Part shown: piece by piece, positions 3,163 through 16,589 of the stretch
Layout of the letters: each line of letters opens with the position of its first letter
Numbering within the stretch: position 1 is the stretch's first letter
Assembly: GCA_902388735.1 (NCBI GenBank)
Contig: CABMQL010000001.1
Span: 44,064 to 108,063, forward strand
Length of the DNA stretch: 64,000 nt
Source: an uncultured Eubacteriales bacterium
GTDB taxonomy: Bacteria; Bacillota; Clostridia; Oscillospirales; Oscillospiraceae
Direction of reading: 5' to 3'
Made by a program: the position numbers and the translations under genes
The notes under the pieces: generated by a model
What the model was told of the DNA's origin: nothing
Databases searched by the model: none
What the model saw: the letters and a program-made list of their open reading frames with translations, nothing else

Positions 3163-5214
3163 TTATGCCGCGGATGCGGTTTGCTTTTTGCTGGAGATGT
3201 ACTGGAACACGACAATGGCGCCCACCACAGCGAGACCGATCAGGTCAGAGGCCAGGCCGGGGATCATCATGCCCAGACCGCCTGCCACAAGGGCGAGACG
3301 CAGCACCATGGGGATCTTGCGGAACAGATGGCCGTTGAGAGCCGCTGCAATGCCGAACAGGCCCAGCAGAGCGGTGATGGAAATGAGCAGCACGTCATAC
3401 CATTCCACATTGCCGACAAAGAGCATGCTGGAGTTATAGGCGAATATGTATGGCACGATAAAGGCGGCTATAGCCAGCTTTGTGGCATTGATACCGGTCT
3501 TCATGGGGTTGGACTTGGCAATGGCGGAGCCGGCATAGGCAGCCAGGGCCACGGGGGGCGTGATGTCCGCCACGATGCCGAAGTAGAACACAAAGAAATG
3601 GGCGGCGACAACGGGGAAGCCCAACTGGATCAGGATGGGGGCGCAGGTGGAAGCCATGATGCAGTAGTTGGCGGTGGTAGGCACACCCATGCCCAGCACG
3701 ATGCAGCACACCATGGTCAGAACCAGGCCGATGATGGTGGCATTGCCGGCCAGAGATACGATGGCGTTGATGAGGATGGAGGCAAGACCCGTTACGGTGA
3801 TGCATCCGGCGATCATACCGGCCATGGCGCAGGCCACAGCCACGGTGATGGCGCCCTTGGCACCGGCGGCGAGAGCATCAACGGCGGACAGAAGGGAGGT
3901 CTTCACAGTCTCCCACAGGATCTTGCCAAAGCTTTGGCCCTTCATCCCCCGGATGTTGGTAGCCAGCAGATGGATGAACCCGATGACAAAGGAAGCCAGG
4001 ATGGAATAGGCGGCGGAGGTGGCCATGGTCTTTGCGCCGGAGGACACCAGCCATACCAGCAGGACCAGAGGCAGGATCAAATAAATGTTTCTGAGCAGAT
4101 AGCCCCACTTGGGCAGCTCCGTGCGGGGAATACCCTTCAGGCCCAGGCGCTTTGCCTCCAAATGGACGGCAATGAAAATGCCGGAGAAGTACAGAACAGC
4201 GGGGAGGATGGCCTTCACAGCTACCTGCGCATAGGGCAGATCCATGTATTCCGCCATCAGGAAGGCAGCGGCGCCCATGATGGGCGGCATGATCTGTCCG
4301 CCGGTGGAGGCGGCCGCTTCCACTGCACCGGCAAACTCAGGCTTGTAGCCGGTCTTCTTCATCATGGGGATGGTCACGGAGCCGGTGGTCACGGTGTTGC
4401 CCACGGAGGAACCGGACACCATGCCGCACAGGGCGGAGGAGATGACAGCCACCTTGGCGGGACCGCCGCTGGACCATCCGGCCACGCGGTTTGCAAAGTC
4501 AATGAAGAAGCTGGCGATGCCGGTGCGCTCCAGGAACGCGCCGAAGACGATGAACAGGACGATGTAAGTGAAGCACACATTGATGGGTGTGCCGATGACG
4601 CCGGAGGTGGTGTAGAACAGCTTATACACCACGTTCTTCAGGGCGTTATAGAAGCTGGGGTTGTAGCTGAGCTGGTTATAGAAGGTGTAGATCAGCAGAG
4701 CACCTACCACGCACAGAATGGGGATGCCCACGCAGCGGCGGCACAGCTCCACCAGCACCAAAATGCCGACGACGCCGATGACCACATGGATGGGCTCAAT
4801 GCGGGTGGCCAACTGGATAAGAGGCAGTGCATTGAAGGCAAAGTAGAAGAAGCAGCCTGCGCCCACCACCATCAGCACAATGTCGTACCAGGGCAGGGAG
4901 TTGACCTTCACATGGCCTTTCTTGGCCGGGTAGGTCAAAAAGCCCAGGATAATGATGCAGCCCACAAACAGGGTCAGGCGCACCTCGGGCAGAGCGGTGG
5001 AAAACAGGGTCATATACAGGCAGTACAGGGAGAAAATCGTCATGATCACCGTGATGATGATCTTGGGTACGCCCTCCCATATGCGGGTGGCGGACTCACG
5101 GTCATACTTGCGCATGACCTCGTCCAGATCGGTCTCCATATCGCTGCTGCTGTCAGCAGCGGGAGCGGTATCCACCGCGGGAGCCGTCTGGTCCTTTTTC
5201 TTAAAGATGCTCAA
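3163..5214 (-). CDS. TRAP transporter fused permease (DctQ-DctM fusion, TAXI-associated type)
   Basis: 683-aa polytopic membrane protein with TRAP 4TM/12TM fusion character. TTG start preceded by AAGGAGG at 9-nt spacing. Directly downstream of a TAXI solute-receptor gene. Confidence 0.85.
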   Translation of the reverse strand: MSIFKKKDQTAPAVDTAPAADSSSDMETDLDEVMRKYDRESATRIWEGVPKIIITVIMTIFSLYCLYMTLFSTALPEVRLTLFVGCIIILGFLTYPAKKGHVKVNSLPWYDIVLMVVGAGCFFYFAFNALPLIQLATRIEPIHVVIGVVGILVLVELCRRCVGIPILCVVGALLIYTFYNQLSYNPSFYNALKNVVYKLFYTTSGVIGTPINVCFTYIVLFIVFGAFLERTGIASFFIDFANRVAGWSSGGPAKVAVISSALCGMVSGSSVGNTVTTGSVTIPMMKKTGYKPEFAGAVEAAASTGGQIMPPIMGAAAFLMAEYMDLPYAQVAVKAILPAVLYFSGIFIAVHLEAKRLGLKGIPRTELPKWGYLLRNIYLILPLVLLVWLVSSGAKTMATSAAYSILASFVIGFIHLLATNIRGMKGQSFGKILWETVKTSLLSAVDALAAGAKGAITVAVACAMAGMIAGCITVTGLASILINAIVSLAGNATIIGLVLTMVCCIVLGMGVPTTANYCIMASTCAPILIQLGFPVVAAHFFVFYFGIVADITPPVALAAYAGSAIAKSNPMKTGINATKLAIAAFIVPYIFAYNSSMLFVGNVEWYDVLLISITALLGLFGIAAALNGHLFRKIPMVLRLALVAGGLGMMIPGLASDLIGLAVVGAIVVFQYISSKKQTASAA

Positions 5215-10369: not shown

Positions 10370-10690
10370 ATGCAAGTAAAAGCAGAGAGCGCGGATCGCA
10401 GGCTGCGGCTGCGCCTGTCCGGCGAGCTGGATCACCATGCCGCCCGCCAGCTTATGAAAAACATCGCAAACGAACTGGAATATGCGCTGCCGCTGGAGGT
10501 TATCCTGGATTTTTCCGGCGTGACCTTCATGGACAGCTCCGGCATTGCTATAGCGCTGCACACGCTGCAGCAGGTAAAGCAGCTAGGGGGAAAAATGCGG
10601 ATCGTGAATCCATCGGCGCAGGTAAAAAAGGTGTTTTTCGCGGCCGGTATCCAAAGAATGATCGAAATGGAGGATGCAGATGAAAAGTGA
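10370..10690 (+). CDS. spoIIAA: Anti-sigma-F factor antagonist SpoIIAA (STAS domain)
   Basis: 106 aa, LSGELDHH motif, first gene of the spoIIA operon. Confidence 0.9.
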   Translation: MQVKAESADRRLRLRLSGELDHHAARQLMKNIANELEYALPLEVILDFSGVTFMDSSGIAIALHTLQQVKQLGGKMRIVNPSAQVKKVFFAAGIQRMIEMEDADEK

Positions 10691-11123
10691 AAATCAGGTA
10701 GCGCTGGAATTTCCCAGCCGCAGCAGCAATGAAGCATTTGCCCGGGTGGCAGCAGCGGGTTTTGCCATGCAGCTGGACCCCACGCTGGAGGAACTGGGGG
10801 ACATCAAAACGGCAGTCAGCGAGGCGGTGACCAACGCCATCGTTCACGGCTATCCGGAGGATTTTGGACGGATCGTTATGAAGCTGCGGATCCGGGAGGG
10901 AAACATCCTGGAGATCGTGGTCAAGGACTGGGGCGTGGGCATTGCGGATGTGGAGCAGGCCCGCAAGCCCATGTTTACCACCGGAAACGATGAGCGCAGC
11001 GGCATGGGCTTTACCATTATGGAGAGCTTCATGGATACACTGCGTGTGCGGTCTGCGCCGCAGAAAGGGACAACGGTGACCATGCGTAAGCGGATCTCCA
11101 CCCGGCTGGGGGAGCGGAAATGA
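10674..11123 (+). CDS. spoIIAB: Anti-sigma-F factor SpoIIAB (serine kinase)
   Basis: 149 aa, GHKL-type kinase motifs. Overlaps spoIIAA by 17 nt and sigF by 4 nt. Confidence 0.9.
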   Translation: MQMKSENQVALEFPSRSSNEAFARVAAAGFAMQLDPTLEELGDIKTAVSEAVTNAIVHGYPEDFGRIVMKLRIREGNILEIVVKDWGVGIADVEQARKPMFTTGNDERSGMGFTIMESFMDTLRVRSAPQKGTTVTMRKRISTRLGERK

Positions 11124-11827
11124 GTGACAGCAGACTGGCCCTGCTGGATCGGGCACAGTCGGGGGACAGCGATGCCTGCGAAAAAATGCTGATGGAAAAC
11201 AGCGGGCTGATCTGGGCCGTAGTGCGGCGATACTACGGCTGCGGGGCAGACCCGGAGGACCTGTATCAGCTGGGATGCATAGGATTCATAAAAGCTGTAA
11301 AGGGATTTGACATTACATATGGAACGCAGTTTTCCACCTATGCGGTGCCAAAGATCGCGGGAGAAATTCGGCGATTTTTACGGGATGACGGACCGGTGAA
11401 GGTAGGGCGCACACTGCGGGAGAGAGGGCAAAGTATCTGGTCGGCCCGACAGCGGCTGCGCACCGCCTTAGGGCGGGAACCGAGGTTATCAGAGGTCGCC
11501 GCCGAGACCGGATGGAGCGCCGAGGAGATCGCCGCGGCGGAACTGGCCGTCTCCGCTCCGGAATCGCTGCAGCAGGAGACGGCGGAGGGGCTGACGCTGG
11601 AATCTACCCTGGGCACGGACGCGCCGGAGGAGTCCCTGGTTGAAAAAATCGCGCTCCGGGAGGCCATACGGGCCCTTCCGGAGCGGGAACAGGAAACGAT
11701 TTATCTTCGGTTCTTCAAATGCATGACTCAGGAGCAGGCGGCGCGGATCCTGGGAGTGTCTCAGGTGCAGGTATCCCGTCTGGAGCGGAAGGGAGTGGCA
11801 CATCTGCGGGAGATGCTTCGGGAATAA
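11120..11827 (+). CDS. sigF: Sporulation sigma factor SigF
   Basis: 235-aa sigma-70 family protein. Third gene of the spoIIA operon. Confidence 0.92.
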   Translation: MSDSRLALLDRAQSGDSDACEKMLMENSGLIWAVVRRYYGCGADPEDLYQLGCIGFIKAVKGFDITYGTQFSTYAVPKIAGEIRRFLRDDGPVKVGRTLRERGQSIWSARQRLRTALGREPRLSEVAAETGWSAEEIAAAELAVSAPESLQQETAEGLTLESTLGTDAPEESLVEKIALREAIRALPEREQETIYLRFFKCMTQEQAARILGVSQVQVSRLERKGVAHLREMLRE

Positions 11828-12590
11828 AGGCGCTTTCCGACTGGAACTCCGTCATGGTAGCGCGATAGCGCTTGGGCAAAAATGTGTTTTGGCAGCGCGG
11901 GTTATACCGATCTTCAATGGCAACGGTGTCAAAAAATGTTTTCCACAGCTTGCGGTATTGCGCCTCCTGTTCGTCCGGCGGCGCAAGGGTCAGGGAATCG
12001 GCCTGCACAATGTGGGACCGGCCCCCGCTGTATAAAAGCAGCTCCCCATGCGTGCGGTCATACAGGAAAAAGGATTCGTTGGCGTAGCGGCTGCAAAAGT
12101 AACCCCTCAGAAAGGGGAGCACCCGGTTTTTGGGCTCAATCTCAGCGCCTAATATGCCGCCGAAGTCGGAGAAGCGCACAAAGCCCCGGAGCTTTTCCAG
12201 CTCGCCGGATAAATGGCGGACGGCCTTATATAGCGGGAAGCAGGCCTCACCAGAGGTGCGGTGCAAAAACTGCGGGCCATCGGCATAGAGCTTTTGGACA
12301 AAACGGTACAGACAGGCTTCCTTGTCGGCCATGCAGGTGTGAAAGGCCCGGTAAAGCAGGCGCCCCGCCCGGGCAGAGCGGCTTTCGATGCTGCGCAGGA
12401 TACGTTCGCTGTGCGTGAGGTCTGTTTCCACACAGCGGACGGGATAAAGAGTGAGAACGGGAAATTCCTCATTGCCGGCAAAGGCAATGGGGAATTCTTT
12501 ATTTACATAACTCTCATAAATGCAGCAGAGAAATCCTTCGTAGCTGCCGTCATATTCATAAACCATGTCGATCCAGGACACTGCGTTCAC
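11715..12590 (-). CDS. Probable DNA metabolism protein, TIGR03915/DUF4130 type (partner of the radical-SAM DNA repair protein)
   Basis: 291 aa. The start overlaps the stop of the upstream radical-SAM gene. The C-terminal ~37 aa are Pro-rich, low-complexity, and encoded antisense to the 3' end of sigF. Confidence 0.7.
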   Translation of the reverse strand: MNAVSWIDMVYEYDGSYEGFLCCIYESYVNKEFPIAFAGNEEFPVLTLYPVRCVETDLTHSERILRSIESRSARAGRLLYRAFHTCMADKEACLYRFVQKLYADGPQFLHRTSGEACFPLYKAVRHLSGELEKLRGFVRFSDFGGILGAEIEPKNRVLPFLRGYFCSRYANESFFLYDRTHGELLLYSGGRSHIVQADSLTLAPPDEQEAQYRKLWKTFFDTVAIEDRYNPRCQNTFLPKRYRATMTEFQSESAFIPEASPADVPLPSAPDGIPAPETLPGSAPPAPESCI

Positions 12591-13855
12591 CCCGTTGCGT
12601 CAAAGAGAGATAGCTGCTGGGCGGCCGGAACAGGCAGACTGCCGCGTTCCACAGCCTGCAGCTGAAAGGCCAGGCTATCGGCGGTAAAATGAAGTCCCTC
12701 CCGCATGCGTCCGCCGCACAGGATAAAAAATTGTGCCCGCTTGAGAACGATACCCATCTTCTTCAGGTCGTCAAAATGGAGAGGACCCGTTCGCCGGGCG
12801 GAAAGTATGCGCCGGGCGCCGGTGGGGCCGATGCCGGGGACACGCAGAAGCCGGTCTAAGCCGGCGGTCATGATCTCCACGGGAAACTGCTCCGGGTGGG
12901 TGATGGCCCAATAGCACTTCGGATCCAGCATGGGATCGAAATTCGGGTGCTGGTCATCCAGCAATTCCTCGGCCCGGAAACCATAAGACCGCAGGAGCCA
13001 ATCCGCCTGGTACAGCCGATGTTCCCGCAGAAGCGGCGGCTTGGTATGCAGTGCAGGGAGGAGGGGGTTTTCCACAACGGGCACATATGCGGAATAAAAG
13101 ACCCGTTTGAGCCGATAGCGGGCATACAGTGATTCGGTCAGATGCAGAATGTGCCGGTCACTATCCTCCGTGGCGCCCACAATGAGCTGCGTGCTCTGCC
13201 CGGCCGGGGCAAAGGCGGGGGCGTGGCGGTACTTCACCAGTTCCTCTTTATTCTGCCGGCCCTGGGCCTCAATGAGCCGCATGGGCGCAAGAATGGCGGC
13301 CTTGCTCTTGTCCGGGGCCAGGGAGGCCAGTCCCTTTTGGGACGGCAGCTCAATATTCACGCTGAGACGGTCCGCCAAATAGCCCAGCCGCTGCACCAGC
13401 TCAGGGCTTGTGCCGGGAATGGCCTTGGCGTGGATATAGCCGTTGAAGCCGTATTCCTGCCGCAGCAGCCGCAGCGACTCGATCATGCGCAGGGTGGTAT
13501 AGTCCGGGTCGCGCAGAACACCGCTGGAGAGAAAAAGTCCCTCAATATAGTTGCGGCGATAGAACTGAATGGTCAGATCGGCCAGCTCCCGGGGAGTAAA
13601 CGCGGTGCGGCGGGTATCGTTGCTGCGGCGGTTGACACAGTATTTGCAGTCGTACACACAGTAATTGGTCATGAGCACCTTCAGCAGGGAGATGCAGCGT
13701 CCGTCAGCGGAAAAGCTGTGACAACAGCCGGCAATGGAGGAGGATGTATTTCCGATCATCCCGGGACGAGAACCGCGCTTGACGCCGCTGGATGTACAGG
13801 AAGCGTCATATTTGGCGGCATCCGTGAGGATGGTCAGCTTATCCAGCAGGTCCAT
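12587..13855 (-). CDS. Putative DNA modification/repair radical SAM protein (TIGR03916 type, C-terminal HhH domain)
   Basis: 422 aa. CxxxCxxC-type cluster region (CVYDCKYC) and C-terminal helix-hairpin-helix (PGIGPTGARRIL). Conserved pairing with a DUF4130 gene. Confidence 0.85.
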   Translation of the reverse strand: MDLLDKLTILTDAAKYDASCTSSGVKRGSRPGMIGNTSSSIAGCCHSFSADGRCISLLKVLMTNYCVYDCKYCVNRRSNDTRRTAFTPRELADLTIQFYRRNYIEGLFLSSGVLRDPDYTTLRMIESLRLLRQEYGFNGYIHAKAIPGTSPELVQRLGYLADRLSVNIELPSQKGLASLAPDKSKAAILAPMRLIEAQGRQNKEELVKYRHAPAFAPAGQSTQLIVGATEDSDRHILHLTESLYARYRLKRVFYSAYVPVVENPLLPALHTKPPLLREHRLYQADWLLRSYGFRAEELLDDQHPNFDPMLDPKCYWAITHPEQFPVEIMTAGLDRLLRVPGIGPTGARRILSARRTGPLHFDDLKKMGIVLKRAQFFILCGGRMREGLHFTADSLAFQLQAVERGSLPVPAAQQLSLFDATG

Positions 13856-13856
13856 T

Positions 13857-13970
13857 TCAGGCGGCGCTGCGCCGGCTGCGGGGCTGATCCACCCGCTCGA
13901 TCAGGCGCATGAGCTGGCCGGAAAAAGCGGCTACACCGATGATTGTGATGATCCATCCGAAAGTCGTCAT
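13857..13970 (-). CDS. Candidate 37-aa small ORF (MTTFGWIITIIGVAAFSGQLMRLIERVDQPRSRRSAA) translationally coupled to the radical-SAM gene
   Basis: Found by hand; below the tool's 60-aa cutoff. SD GGAGGAA 6 nt before the ATG. The stop/start junction is TGAaATG. It is the first cistron after a consensus promoter. Confidence 0.45.
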   Translation of the reverse strand: MTTFGWIITIIGVAAFSGQLMRLIERVDQPRSRRSAA

Positions 13971-13987: not shown

Positions 13988-14001
13988 AAAACTTTTGTTC
14001 T
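13988..14001. promoter_or_regulatory. Second, slightly degenerate LexA-like box (AAAAC-tttt-GTTC-T) at the predicted transcription start of the minus-strand operon
   Basis: One mismatch to GAAC-N4-GTTC. Confidence 0.4.
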
Positions 14002-14008
14002 ACTAAGG

Positions 14009-14037
14009 ATTATAAATCGAACAAGAGTTCTTGTCAA
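14009..14037 (-). promoter_or_regulatory. Perfect consensus sigma-A promoter (TTGACA-17-TATAAT) driving the minus-strand smallORF–radical-SAM–DUF4130 operon
   Basis: Reverse complement of 14032-14037 is TTGACA and of 14009-14014 is TATAAT, with exactly 17 nt between them. Confidence 0.7.
14018..14031. promoter_or_regulatory. LexA (Cheo/SOS) box CGAACAAGAGTTCT lying entirely inside the promoter spacer
   Basis: Exact fit to the Firmicute consensus CGAAC-N4-GTTC-T. Confidence 0.7.
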
Positions 14038-14045
14038 GAGGAAAT

Positions 14046-14059
14046 CGAACAAAAATTCT
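14046..14059. promoter_or_regulatory. Third LexA-like box (CGAAC-aaaa-ATTC-T), upstream of both divergent promoters
   Basis: One mismatch to consensus. Confidence 0.4.
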
Positions 14060-14135: not shown

Positions 14136-16589
14136 ATGAACGAATTAGAAAGACGATTTATAGCCGCCCGGCGCAAGGCCATTGAGCTGGACTACAAGCG
14201 GCTCAATCCCATGCAGCGGGAGGGCGTGCTGACCACTGAGGGGCCGCTGCTGCTGCTGGCGGGTGCGGGCTCCGGCAAGACCACGGTGCTCATTAACCGG
14301 GTGGCAAACCTGCTGCGCTATGGCCGGGGCAGCGACACGGAGGAGATCCCCATTCCTATCTCCGAGGACGAGGTGGCGTTTCTGGAGCAGTATATCCAGG
14401 ACCCCCAGGAGGAGATGCGGCCCGTGATGCAGTATCTGTGTGCCGTGCAGCCGGCCCGGCCATGGGAGGTGCTGGCCATTACCTTCACCAACAAGGCCGC
14501 CGGGGAGCTGAAGGAGCGCCTGGAGCGGATGCTGGGGGAGGAGGCCCTGGATGTGTGGGCAGCCACTTTCCACGCGGCCTGCGTTCGCATTCTGCGCCGG
14601 GATATTGACAAACTGGGCTATGACCGCAATTTTACCATCTATGACACCGACGACTCCAAGCGAGTCATCAAGGATATTCTCAAGGACCTGGGTTTGGAGG
14701 AAAAGCAGTTTCCCACTCGAGAGCTGCTGTCGGTGATCTCCAACGCCAAGGGGGACATGCTCTCCCCGGAGGAGTTCTGCCAGCTGTGGGAGCAGCGGGG
14801 AGATTGGCGGAAAATCAGGATCGGTAAAGTATATAGGCTTTACAACCAAAAGCTCCGGGAGGCCAACGCCCTGGACTTTGACGACATCATCCTGCATACG
14901 GTGACCCTGCTGCAGAGCGACAAAGAGGTGCGCGCGTACTATCAGAATAAGTTCCGCTACATACTCATTGATGAGTACCAGGACACCAACCACCTGCAGT
15001 TCCTCCTGGCGGGTCTGCTGACGGGCCCTCACGGCAACATCTGCGTGGTGGGCGATGACGACCAAAGCATTTACCGCTTCCGGGGCGCGGATATCACCAA
15101 TATCCTCAGCTTTGAGCAGCGCTATAAGAACGCACGGACCATCCGTTTGGAGCAGAATTACCGGTCTACCCAAAACATCCTGGACGCGGCCAACGCGGTG
15201 ATCCGCAACAATGAGGGGCGCAAGGGCAAGACTCTGTGGACCCAAAACGGCGCCGGGGACCCGGTGACCATCAAGACCTGCTTCAACGAGAGCGACGAGG
15301 CCAACTTTGTGGTGGGAGACATCATGACCCGCTACAACCGGGGCGCCAACTGGCGGGACAACGCCATTCTGTACCGGATGAACGCCCAGTCCAACGCCTT
15401 GGAATATGCCTTCAAGCGCAACGGCGTGCCCTATAAGATCGTGGGCGGTGTGAAGTTCTTCGACCGGGCAGAGGTGAAGGATATGCTGGCATATCTGTGT
15501 GTGATCTGCAACCCGGCGGACGACCTGCGCCTGCGACGGATCATCAATGTGCCCTCCCGGAAGATCGGCGGGGCGTCCCTGGAAAAGGCCCAGGCTATTG
15601 CGGCGGCGGAGGGGAAGCCTCTGTTTGAGATCGTCCGCACCGCCCGGAATTACCCGGAGCTGAAGTCCGCCGCCGGGCGGATGGAGGATTTCGGGCAGCT
15701 GATTATGGAGCTGCGGGCGCTGTGCGACCAGCTGGAGCTGGTGGAATTTTACGGCAGGGTCTGCCAGATGTCCGGCTATGTGCAGATGCTGCAGGAAAAG
15801 AATGACATGGAGAGTCGGGGCCGGCTGGAGAACGTGCAGGAGTTGGCCTCCAGCATCAGCGCTTTCCTGGAAAACGACCCCGATGACCCGTCCCTGGCGG
15901 GCTTTCTCAACGATGTGGCCCTGTATACCGACTTGGACGGCCAGTCCGACAGCGACAACTGCGTGACCCTGATGACCATGCACAGCGCCAAGGGCCTGGA
16001 ATTTGACCATGTGTATGTCACCGGCATGGACGAGGGCGTGTTCCCCGGGAACCGCGCTATGGGCGAGCAGGAGGAAATGGAGGAGGAGCGCAGGCTCTGC
16101 TATGTGGCCATGACCCGGGCCCGCAAGACCCTGACCATGACCAACGTGCGCCAGCGGATGCTTTTTGGCCAAACGGAGCCGAAGATGCCCTCCCGATTCC
16201 TGGAGGAGATCCCGGCGGAGAATATGCGCTGGCTCGGAAAGCCCGAGCCGAGAAAGGCGCTCCAGTGGGACGATGACTGGAGCGATGGCTGGTCCGGCGG
16301 CTGGGGGAGCACCACGCGCGGAACATATAAAGCACAGGAGATCAAGCAGCAGACAAGGCAAAAACCTTTACAGCATTCCACAACGACCCGCCGGGTGCCG
16401 GCGGCTGCTTCCGCGCCGCTGATGCAGCTAAGCGCCGGGGATCAGGTGCGCCACAGCGCCTTTGGACAGGGTATGGTGCTCAGCGTGCGGCCTATGGGCG
16501 GCGATGCGCTGATTGAGGTGGCCTTTGACAAAGTGGGCACCAAGAAGCTGATGCTCAAGGCCGCCGGGGCACATCTGACCAAATTGTAA
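14136..16589 (+). CDS. pcrA: ATP-dependent DNA helicase PcrA (UvrD family)
   Basis: 817 aa. Walker A GAGSGKT, UvrD-type helicase motifs, C-terminal Tudor-like tail. SD GAGAGAGG. Confidence 0.92.
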   Translation: MNELERRFIAARRKAIELDYKRLNPMQREGVLTTEGPLLLLAGAGSGKTTVLINRVANLLRYGRGSDTEEIPIPISEDEVAFLEQYIQDPQEEMRPVMQYLCAVQPARPWEVLAITFTNKAAGELKERLERMLGEEALDVWAATFHAACVRILRRDIDKLGYDRNFTIYDTDDSKRVIKDILKDLGLEEKQFPTRELLSVISNAKGDMLSPEEFCQLWEQRGDWRKIRIGKVYRLYNQKLREANALDFDDIILHTVTLLQSDKEVRAYYQNKFRYILIDEYQDTNHLQFLLAGLLTGPHGNICVVGDDDQSIYRFRGADITNILSFEQRYKNARTIRLEQNYRSTQNILDAANAVIRNNEGRKGKTLWTQNGAGDPVTIKTCFNESDEANFVVGDIMTRYNRGANWRDNAILYRMNAQSNALEYAFKRNGVPYKIVGGVKFFDRAEVKDMLAYLCVICNPADDLRLRRIINVPSRKIGGASLEKAQAIAAAEGKPLFEIVRTARNYPELKSAAGRMEDFGQLIMELRALCDQLELVEFYGRVCQMSGYVQMLQEKNDMESRGRLENVQELASSISAFLENDPDDPSLAGFLNDVALYTDLDGQSDSDNCVTLMTMHSAKGLEFDHVYVTGMDEGVFPGNRAMGEQEEMEEERRLCYVAMTRARKTLTMTNVRQRMLFGQTEPKMPSRFLEEIPAENMRWLGKPEPRKALQWDDDWSDGWSGGWGSTTRGTYKAQEIKQQTRQKPLQHSTTTRRVPAAASAPLMQLSAGDQVRHSAFGQGMVLSVRPMGGDALIEVAFDKVGTKKLMLKAAGAHLTKL

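Follow-up and report, generated by a model that had tools for sequence, protein, structure and literature searches.

The 64,000-nucleotide stretch of contig CABMQL010000001.1 analysed here (the window), from an uncultured Eubacteriales bacterium of the Oscillospiraceae, carries on its minus strand a 37-codon open reading frame (ORF) which, judged by its conservation, is a real gene for a small membrane peptide. This micro-ORF opens an operon with an SOS-type (LexA-type) promoter, and the gene that follows it, which encodes a radical S-adenosylmethionine (radical-SAM) protein, has lost its own Shine-Dalgarno (SD) site in the loci that contain the micro-ORF. Homologues of the peptide also occur on phage-like contigs, with no radical-SAM gene nearby, and the reading tentatively preferred below is that of a DNA-damage-induced membrane effector that acts alone.

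A conserved micro-protein gene and its coupling to the radical-SAM gene

The following features form the head of the operon:
13857..13970 (read 13970 to 13857), minus strand: micro-protein gene, ATG...TGA, 37 codons plus TGA, encoding MTTFGWIITIIGVAAFSGQLMRLIERVDQPRSRRSAA
13977..13983, minus strand: SD site GGAGGAA, 6 nt upstream of the micro-ORF ATG
12587..13855, minus strand: TIGR03916 radical-SAM gene, 422 aa, with its ATG 1 nt past the micro-ORF stop and no SD site of its own

The ORF, the GGAGGAA site and the junction TGAaATG, in which a single A separates the micro-ORF stop from the ATG of the 422-aa gene at 13855, are all present in the sequence as the first-pass annotation had reported them. 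A lone ORF of 37 codons could arise by chance, and it is the conservation of the window ORF that argues against this origin. A genome scan with the radical-SAM protein as query returned 80 loci, the closest of them from Oscillibacter and other Oscillospiraceae; 32 of the 80, and with the window a total of 33, have an ORF of 36-43 codons that ends 1-10 nt before the radical-SAM start. The micro-ORF ATG is preceded by a GGAGG-type site in all 33 (GGGGG or GGAGA in two). The search for the peptide upstream of orthologous radical-SAM genes, which had been proposed as a check on the ORF, therefore found it there together with its ribosome-binding site (RBS), in 32 distinct DNA versions.

The differences between these versions are of the kind expected of a protein-coding sequence. 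Comparison of the window ORF with its three closest relatives gives 5/0, 4/1 and 10/2 synonymous/non-synonymous changes (19 versus 3 in total), and the median ratio of non-synonymous to synonymous rates (dN/dS) over all micro-ORF pairs is 0.41, at a range where synonymous sites are saturated. The two C-terminal Ala codons also differ synonymously between loci (GCC, GCG, GCT, GCA). Both observations indicate that selection acts on the protein, the amino-acid sequence of which is, as read from these substitutions, under purifying selection over its whole length.

A profile search of 5.8 billion proteins recovered 315 micro-protein clusters, every one of which is 37-43 aa long, or longer through a mis-called N-terminus; none contains a Pfam domain and their names, where present, read 'hypothetical protein'. 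An exhaustive phmmer search of 1.84 billion representatives returned 8, all of the same family, and no connection from the micro-protein to a larger protein or family. Neither the peptide nor its profile had a significant match in searches of Pfam, NCBIfam, PHROG, PADLOC and PDB sequences, a tblastn search of plasmids found no homologue, and a second copy was found neither in the 64-kb window nor in any locus examined. Gene calls whose product is exactly the window peptide occur on contigs in 495 blocks of the assembly collection, human-gut metagenome assemblies included. By the evidence of its conservation, the 37-codon ORF is a real and conserved gene.

The first-pass annotation had described a hydrophobic micro-protein composed of a single helix and a basic tail, and hydropathy, charge and structure prediction agree with this description. 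The Kyte-Doolittle 19-mer maximum is 1.65, residues 1-21 are free of charge, and AlphaFold2 (54-sequence alignment) predicts a single helix over residues 2-28 (predicted local distance difference test score, pLDDT, 80.6) followed by a disordered tail. The tail of the window peptide is Arg-rich and ends in Ala-Ala; throughout the family its net charge ranges from +2 to +7 and it mostly ends in Ala (RTA, RAA, NAA, TAA etc.). Since the tail is basic, the positive-inside rule places the N-terminus outside and the C-terminus inside, so that the micro-protein is predicted to be a single-helix N-out/C-in membrane peptide with only about 2-3 residues on the outer side. Among 144 distinct micro-protein sequences, over which conservation was computed, Gly12 is invariant and further conserved positions are G5 (94%), I8 (90%), S15 (84%), N/Q19 (96%), M21 (93%), L23 (97%), D/E28 (99%) and P30 (98%). 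The spacing by seven of G5, G12 and N19, and likewise of I8, S15 and R/H22, places them on one face of the helix. The window peptide and most members lack cysteine altogether, and at no position is Cys conserved. In being basic and ending in Ala, the C-terminus is reminiscent of motifs recognised by ClpX, for example ssrA-LAA and MuA-RRKKAI.

Translation of homologues has been recorded. Sheet '623ClusterInfo' in the supplement of the published MetaRibo-Seq study lists catalogued small-protein families homologous to the micro-protein, its 623 families being those with ribosome-profiling signal drawn from ~4,500 'high-confidence' human-microbiome families (PMC7324362). Family 291199 has 85 members, a length of 37 aa and an RNAcode p of 0.002, and is listed for Oscillibacter sp. 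CAG:241; the figures for family 259710 are 94 members, 39 aa and p = 2.8e-7. Their assignment is to genomes of Oscillibacter and Firmicutes CAG, both have RBS motifs and a predicted helical structure, and a further listed family of 42 aa resembles the version of the micro-protein found in one of our loci, L028 (PMC7324362). The window peptide is identical to the representative of family 291199 at 19 of 37 positions (51%, ungapped, E = 6e-14), where family membership was taken to require at least ~50% amino-acid identity, after the CD-HIT 50% clustering by the catalogue authors. Window-type and catalogue sequences also group in one family under a hidden Markov model (HMM), and by these comparisons families 291199 and 259710 belong to the same protein family as the window peptide. 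For translation, a MetaRibo-Seq value of at least 10 reads per kilobase per million (RPKM) was required, the values being those of homologues in genomes other than the window's: in human stool, a 114-nt gene on contig PJJNKMKO_125088_40659_40772 has RNA 93.2 and Ribo 333.2 RPKM, the value for family 291199, and contig HDALDHFB_201942_1442_1567 has RNA 35.2 and Ribo 69.7 RPKM, the value for family 259710 (PMC7324362). The test of ribosome occupancy that had been suggested for the ORF is therefore effectively passed for its homologues by published signal (PMC7324362).

The translational coupling claimed in the first-pass annotation turns out to be stronger than had been supposed. SD strength was calculated as the pairing energy of the 18 nt upstream of a start codon with the 3' end of 16S ribosomal RNA, and its median is -10.7 kcal/mol for the micro-ORF start; for the radical-SAM start it is -1.7 kcal/mol in loci with the micro-ORF versus -10.1 in loci without it (Mann-Whitney p = 2e-12). 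The radical-SAM start codon is ATG in 33/33 micro-ORF loci, and GTG or TTG in ~13/34 of the loci without. The distance from micro-ORF stop to radical-SAM start is 1-10 nt in the 33 genome loci and 21 nt in a metagenome contig (L093), which also lacks an SD site before the radical-SAM gene. Because the radical-SAM gene has no SD site of its own and starts just past the micro-ORF stop, its translation must depend on terminating ribosomes, with re-initiation by those that have just finished the micro-ORF being required.

The origin of this arrangement may be traceable. In five loci without the micro-ORF (L027, L045, L046, L052 and L069) the spacer between SD site and radical-SAM start reads ...GCCGCC or ...ACCGCC, and in loci having the micro-ORF the ORF itself ends GCC GCC TGA (window 13857-13865). 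This pattern points to insertion of the micro-ORF into the former spacer between SD site and start, with spacer sequence as the source of its terminal Ala-Ala.

A conserved RNA element was also considered and rejected. Folding of the leader and ORF mRNA showed no unusual structure (z = -0.89) and Rfam returned no family at gathering score, its sole weak match lying on the opposite strand; with synonymous sites unconstrained as well, an RNA element does not explain the conservation.

SOS-type control of the repair operon

Upstream of the SD site the minus strand carries a promoter and three LexA-type boxes:
14009..14037 (read 14037 to 14009), minus strand: sigma-70-type promoter TTGACA-17-TATAAT, 12/12 consensus matches
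14047..14058, minus strand: LexA-type box 1, GAATTTTTGTTC, one mismatch, upstream of the -35 element in the region common to the divergent helicase gene
14019..14030, minus strand: LexA-type box 2, GAACTCTTGTTC, a perfect GAAC-N4-GTTC between the -35 and -10 elements
13989..14000, minus strand: LexA-type box 3, GAACAAAAGTTT, one mismatch, between the -10 element and the SD site

The consensus promoter of the first-pass annotation is thus present as a perfect match, and its layout is repeated in related loci, some of which have small variants of the hexamers. Box 2 is the sole perfect GAAC-N4-GTTC match in the 64-kb window. With at most one mismatch allowed, box 1 was found in 27 of the 33 loci, box 2 in all 33 and box 3 in 31, at the same positions throughout, about -88, -60 and -30 from the micro-ORF ATG (box 3 at -28 to -33). 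A Cheo-type operator (GAAC-N4-GTTC) overlapping the promoter, the sequence feature of the Firmicutes LexA regulon, is therefore found here, and the earlier description of the promoter as SOS-type gains from the conservation of one perfect and two one-mismatch boxes across 33 loci. The operon formed by the TIGR03916 and TIGR03915 genes is reported to be LexA-regulated in Verrucomicrobia (PMC4951493) and putatively so in Clostridium acetobutylicum (PMC3828012). SOS (LexA-type) control of the micro-ORF operon is well supported by inference from these sites and reports.

In the orthologous loci of the alphaproteobacterium Jannaschia (L076-L080), GAAC-N7-GAAC direct repeats lie ~10-30 nt before the radical-SAM start (locus position ~3975-4000), and fit LexA control of the operon across phyla.

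The remaining genes at the operon and its control region are:
11715..12590, minus strand: TIGR03915/DUF4130 gene, GTG start, 4-nt overlap with the radical-SAM stop, predicted partner of the radical-SAM protein
14136..16589, plus strand: PcrA/UvrD-type helicase gene, divergent from the operon and sharing its intergenic control region, with Pfam domains UvrD-helicase, UvrD_C and PcrA_UvrD_tudor (read on the identical gene in loci L081-L086)

The radical-SAM protein scores 631.2 bits against TIGR03916 (cut-off 343.5) and the DUF4130 protein 186.5 against TIGR03915 (cut-off 112.25). With both curated scores passed and the genes adjacent in one operon, the two represent the TIGR03916/TIGR03915 putative DNA-repair pair; the only Pfam domains in the radical-SAM protein are Radical_SAM, Fer4_12 and HhH. 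For homologous radical-SAM and DUF4130 proteins, a heterodimer has been predicted with AlphaFold3 (bioRxiv 10.64898/2026.08.19.745780).

Distribution, phage-like relatives and synteny

In a neighbour-joining tree of the radical-SAM protein (calculated with no support values), the micro-ORF loci all fall in one clade of Oscillospiraceae. Two lineages within this clade are without the ORF, one represented by L026 and the other by L027/L029/L030/L032, and these are apparent losses. In the lineages without the ORF, LexA box 3 is followed directly by a strong SD site and the radical-SAM start, and the radical-SAM/DUF4130 pair is intact. Since sister lineages keep the pair without the micro-ORF, the repair pair does not need the peptide.

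A tblastn search of phage records gave a weak match in MT835520.1 ('UNVERIFIED Bacteriophage sp.', human faeces), which encodes MTVFSFIVTATGAATLAALFVRLLDRIDQPRKR, a peptide of 33 aa with its own SD site and no radical-SAM gene nearby (L096 3001-3102; MT835520.1 41546-41644). That this subfamily, which comprises ~20 clusters, is homologous to the chromosomal one is indicated by an HMM built from chromosomal members only, which scores it at 33-38 bits (E 1e-8 to 1e-10 among 17,361 ORFs), and by BLASTP, in which the 33-aa homologue is 45% identical to the chromosomal form over its full length, ungapped. Both subfamilies have in common M1-T2, G12-A13, an aromatic side chain at position 6 and, most notably, the RL(I/L)DR(I/L)DxPR motif next to the membrane; N19 and G5 are not retained in the phage subfamily, and the long Arg-rich, Ala-ending tail is found only in the chromosomal SOS form.

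The contigs that carry the 33-aa subfamily (L096, L098-L104) are mostly 74-83 kb long and have the gene in a rightward early operon. It is preceded by a gene of the Cro/C1-type helix-turn-helix class and by small variable genes, the immediately preceding one often overlapping it via ATGA; LPD25 or AntA/ANT genes lie downstream, and Bro-N/ANT, pRha, MT-A70 and phosphoadenosine-phosphosulfate (PAPS)-reductase genes are found nearby. These phage-like contigs have no LexA boxes at the loci of the 33-aa subfamily and no radical-SAM gene. The existence of homologues without a radical-SAM gene indicates that the peptide probably acts alone.

Two further observations concern the phage records. The gene two places upstream of the 33-aa gene (L103/L104 3484-3744, L096 2283-2495) codes for a small protein with the AcrIC5 anti-CRISPR domain (PF22147, 74 bits). 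The second match of the phage-record search, MT835750.1 (1-3740, reverse complement, our L097), is also labelled 'UNVERIFIED: Bacteriophage sp.' but carries the ordinary bacterial SOS locus, with the micro-ORF behind three LexA-type boxes and a radical-SAM gene at 83% identity, and is probably bacterial DNA in a virome data set.

On the chromosomes, the block pcrA | micro-rSAM-DUF4130 | sigF is mostly syntenic in micro-ORF loci (L028 has no pcrA upstream), and the linkage of peptide and radical-SAM gene can consequently be explained by inheritance alone. The sigF side of the block in the window is a spoIIAA-spoIIAB-sigF-like operon (STAS anti-anti-sigma, HATPase anti-sigma and sigma-70 family proteins; 10370-11827, plus strand), which converges on the SOS operon from downstream, an arrangement conserved in most micro-ORF loci. 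The DUF4130 gene (minus strand, ending at 11715) and the sigF-like gene (plus strand, 11120..11827) are convergent with a coding overlap of 113 nt (11715-11827), which recurs in L081-L086; the overlapped tail of the DUF4130 protein is Pro-rich and of low complexity.

Function of the micro-protein

The first-pass annotation had offered three functions side by side, a membrane-anchoring or regulatory partner, a leader peptide tuning radical-SAM expression and a small toxin-like peptide co-induced by SOS, and these are no longer equal. Phage homologues without a radical-SAM gene, and apparent losses that spare the repair pair, both tell against the peptide being an obligate partner or no more than a leader. 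Because the same module occurs in phage early operons and the repair pair survives without it, an autonomous damage-response function at the membrane is the most likely one, and the micro-protein may accordingly be viewed as a DNA-damage-induced membrane effector that acts alone, for example as an inhibitor of division or growth, an assignment held with confidence somewhat short of even.

In such a role, DNA damage would lead to cleavage of LexA and derepression of the promoter, and the peptide would be made first. It would insert so that the N-terminus faces outwards and the Arg-rich tail stays in the cytoplasm, and would act alone at the membrane, most likely as a transient inhibitor of division or growth comparable with SidA, YneA, SosA and phage early proteins. 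The juxtamembrane RL(I/L)DR(I/L)DxPR motif and invariant Gly12 are the probable site of its interactions. In the chromosomal form, the basic tail with its terminal Ala may shorten the lifetime of the peptide. Phage early operons would also be switched on after DNA damage in lysogens, and the family has probably been exchanged between a temperate phage-like element and the chromosome.

Such a role has precedents, since small integral membrane proteins are a widespread SOS device that blocks late division (PMC13396833), and the window peptide shares with these inhibitors a single (predicted) transmembrane helix, small size and SOS-type control. The closest in form is SidA of Caulobacter crescentus, a 29-aa SOS-induced inner-membrane division inhibitor that acts on FtsW and is likewise a tiny single-helix membrane peptide induced by LexA derepression after DNA damage (PMC13396833). 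SidA, however, belongs to another phylum and has no sequence similarity to the window peptide, which differs further in opening a repair operon with obligate translational coupling and in having its most conserved part in a cytoplasmic juxtamembrane motif. YneA of Bacillus subtilis, SosA of Staphylococcus aureus and ChiZ of Mycobacterium are Gram-positive, SOS-induced proteins with one transmembrane helix, and are short-lived by proteolysis, which parallels the role proposed for the Ala-ending tail (PMC13396833, PMC6051672). In contrast to the window peptide, they are 77-105 aa or longer, are oriented N-in/C-out and depend on an essential extracellular part (LysM or an extended helix); with its ~2-3 residues outside, the window peptide has no LysM domain by Pfam that would match YneA or ChiZ.

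Phages also encode host-takeover peptides in their early operons, such as lambda Kil and SPO1 gp56. The position of the 33-aa subfamily, just past a Cro-type repressor gene and among small variable early genes, resembles theirs, although there is no sequence relationship between them. A fuller version of the effector model is that a phage-derived peptide of 33-40 residues was domesticated in a large clade of human-gut Oscillospiraceae as a DNA-damage checkpoint effector, with an 'arrest first, repair second' translational relay in which the radical-SAM enzyme would be translated only by ribosomes fresh from the arrest peptide, and with an Ala-ending degron added for checkpoint recovery; taken as a whole, this scenario is doubtful.

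Several points weigh against the autonomous effector. No sequence similarity to SidA, YneA, SosA, ChiZ, TisB or DinQ was found; the predicted topology leaves almost nothing outside the cell, and YneA and SosA need their extracellular parts; and the most conserved stretch is cytoplasmic and juxtamembrane, which a cytoplasmic partner, for example the repair proteins, would fit equally. It is because of these three points that confidence in a division or growth inhibitor is limited. In addition, every chromosomal context seen has the peptide joined to the radical-SAM gene, which also fits a functional link, and the phage-like label of the ~80-kb contigs derives from Pfam and PHROG hits and one 'UNVERIFIED' record.

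The same points lend some weight to the view that the peptide is an accessory subunit or membrane tether. Its amphipathic helix on the cytoplasmic side and its Arg-rich tail would then bind the radical-SAM/DUF4130 heterodimer, and the peptide would localise or modulate the complex at the membrane-proximal nucleoid, with coupling setting the stoichiometry. The chromosomal members seen all have the radical-SAM gene within 1-21 nt under obligate coupling, the cytoplasmic juxtamembrane motif is their best-conserved part, and a complex of the radical-SAM and DUF4130 proteins is predicted. Nevertheless, TIGR03916/03915 pairs occur without the peptide in most lineages, including the sister lineages with apparent loss, phage-type homologues retain the motif with no radical-SAM gene nearby, and vertical inheritance of the whole block can account for the synteny. 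Hydrophobic micro-subunits such as KdpF, CydX and AcrZ serve membrane complexes, and Pfam shows only soluble-type domains (Radical_SAM, HhH, DUF4130) in the two proteins here. A subunit role is therefore judged rather improbable.

The loss of the radical-SAM SD site could also mean that the micro-ORF is a cis-acting upstream ORF, the translation of which sets or gates radical-SAM translation by termination-reinitiation, the peptide as such doing little or nothing in trans. This would account for a radical-SAM gene that has no SD site, always starts with ATG and lies 1-10 nt past the stop in the 33 genome loci, and for the strong SD site right after LexA box 3 in loci without the micro-ORF. It does not account for purifying selection on the amino acids over the full length, for free synonymous sites and an unremarkable mRNA fold (z = -0.89), or for homologues without a downstream radical-SAM gene, and a purely cis-acting role is unlikely. 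An arrest peptide of the SecM/MifM type was excluded outright: a nascent chain of 37 residues is still within the ribosome exit tunnel at termination, and sensing of membrane insertion in this manner is therefore impossible.

A particular form of the autonomous effector would be a type I toxin-like peptide which, like TisB or DinQ of E. coli, forms pores or depolarises the membrane, lowers the proton-motive force and promotes dormancy. The likeness lies in LexA-type control, in a length of ~35 aa (TisB and DinQ, also under LexA control, are hydrophobic helices of ~30 aa that bear a polar stripe) and in a single hydrophobic helix with a small/polar heptad stripe (G5, G12, N/Q19; I8, S15, R/H22) that could drive oligomerisation. 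However, type I toxins are typically monocistronic and under tight translational repression, TisB and DinQ being restrained by antisense RNAs and structured leaders, whereas the micro-ORF combines a strong SD site with a short leader and heads a repair operon, the repair gene being coupled downstream. No promoter-like site for an antisense RNA was found opposite the ORF or beside it, synonymous sites are unconstrained, and N19 and G5 of the stripe are lost from the phage subfamily, all of which makes a pore-forming toxin less likely still.

The weakest proposal is a precursor of a ribosomally synthesized and post-translationally modified peptide (RiPP) processed by the adjacent enzyme. The one point in its favour is the layout, since a gene for a short peptide placed immediately before a radical-SAM gene is the classical RiPP arrangement. 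It was rejected as highly improbable on domain content and phyletic pattern, because the enzyme is a TIGR03916 protein with an HhH DNA-binding motif and, by Pfam, without SPASM, twitch or RRE domains, because across phyla it is SOS-regulated and paired with DUF4130 in the absence of any peptide, and because the peptide resembles a transmembrane helix with no Cys in the window form and none conserved, has no transporter or protease gene nearby and has phage homologues without a radical-SAM gene.

The micro-protein family is itself already public, as an anonymous small protein in catalogues and annotations: families 291199 and 259710, which belong to it, are part of the human-microbiome '4k' catalogue of Sberro et al. 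(2019), which gives no function, and have MetaRibo-Seq validation (PMC7324362). The portions of the catalogue text and tables that were available make no mention of LexA boxes, radical-SAM coupling or phage relatives, the available part of the Sberro preprint text mentions neither SOS nor LexA, and a full-text literature search for the peptide strings gave no match in main texts. As far as these limited searches show, the LexA-type control, the loss of the radical-SAM RBS with obligate coupling, the juxtamembrane motif and the phage subfamily are new.

Knowledge of SOS checkpoint effectors is confined to a few model bacteria; for the gut Oscillospiraceae, abundant but poorly tractable, none is described. 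The micro-protein family provides a concrete candidate for such an effector, being conserved, having published translation evidence for its homologues and possessing a clear regulatory architecture, and an anonymous entry of human-microbiome catalogues is now tied to a defined regulon and operon. The locus also offers a clean natural case of a repair enzyme that has given up its own RBS and relies on an upstream micro-ORF. Any link of the peptide to the TIGR03916/03915 putative repair pair would inform on that pair too, and the phage relatives suggest that peptides of this kind move between phages and the stress regulons of their hosts.

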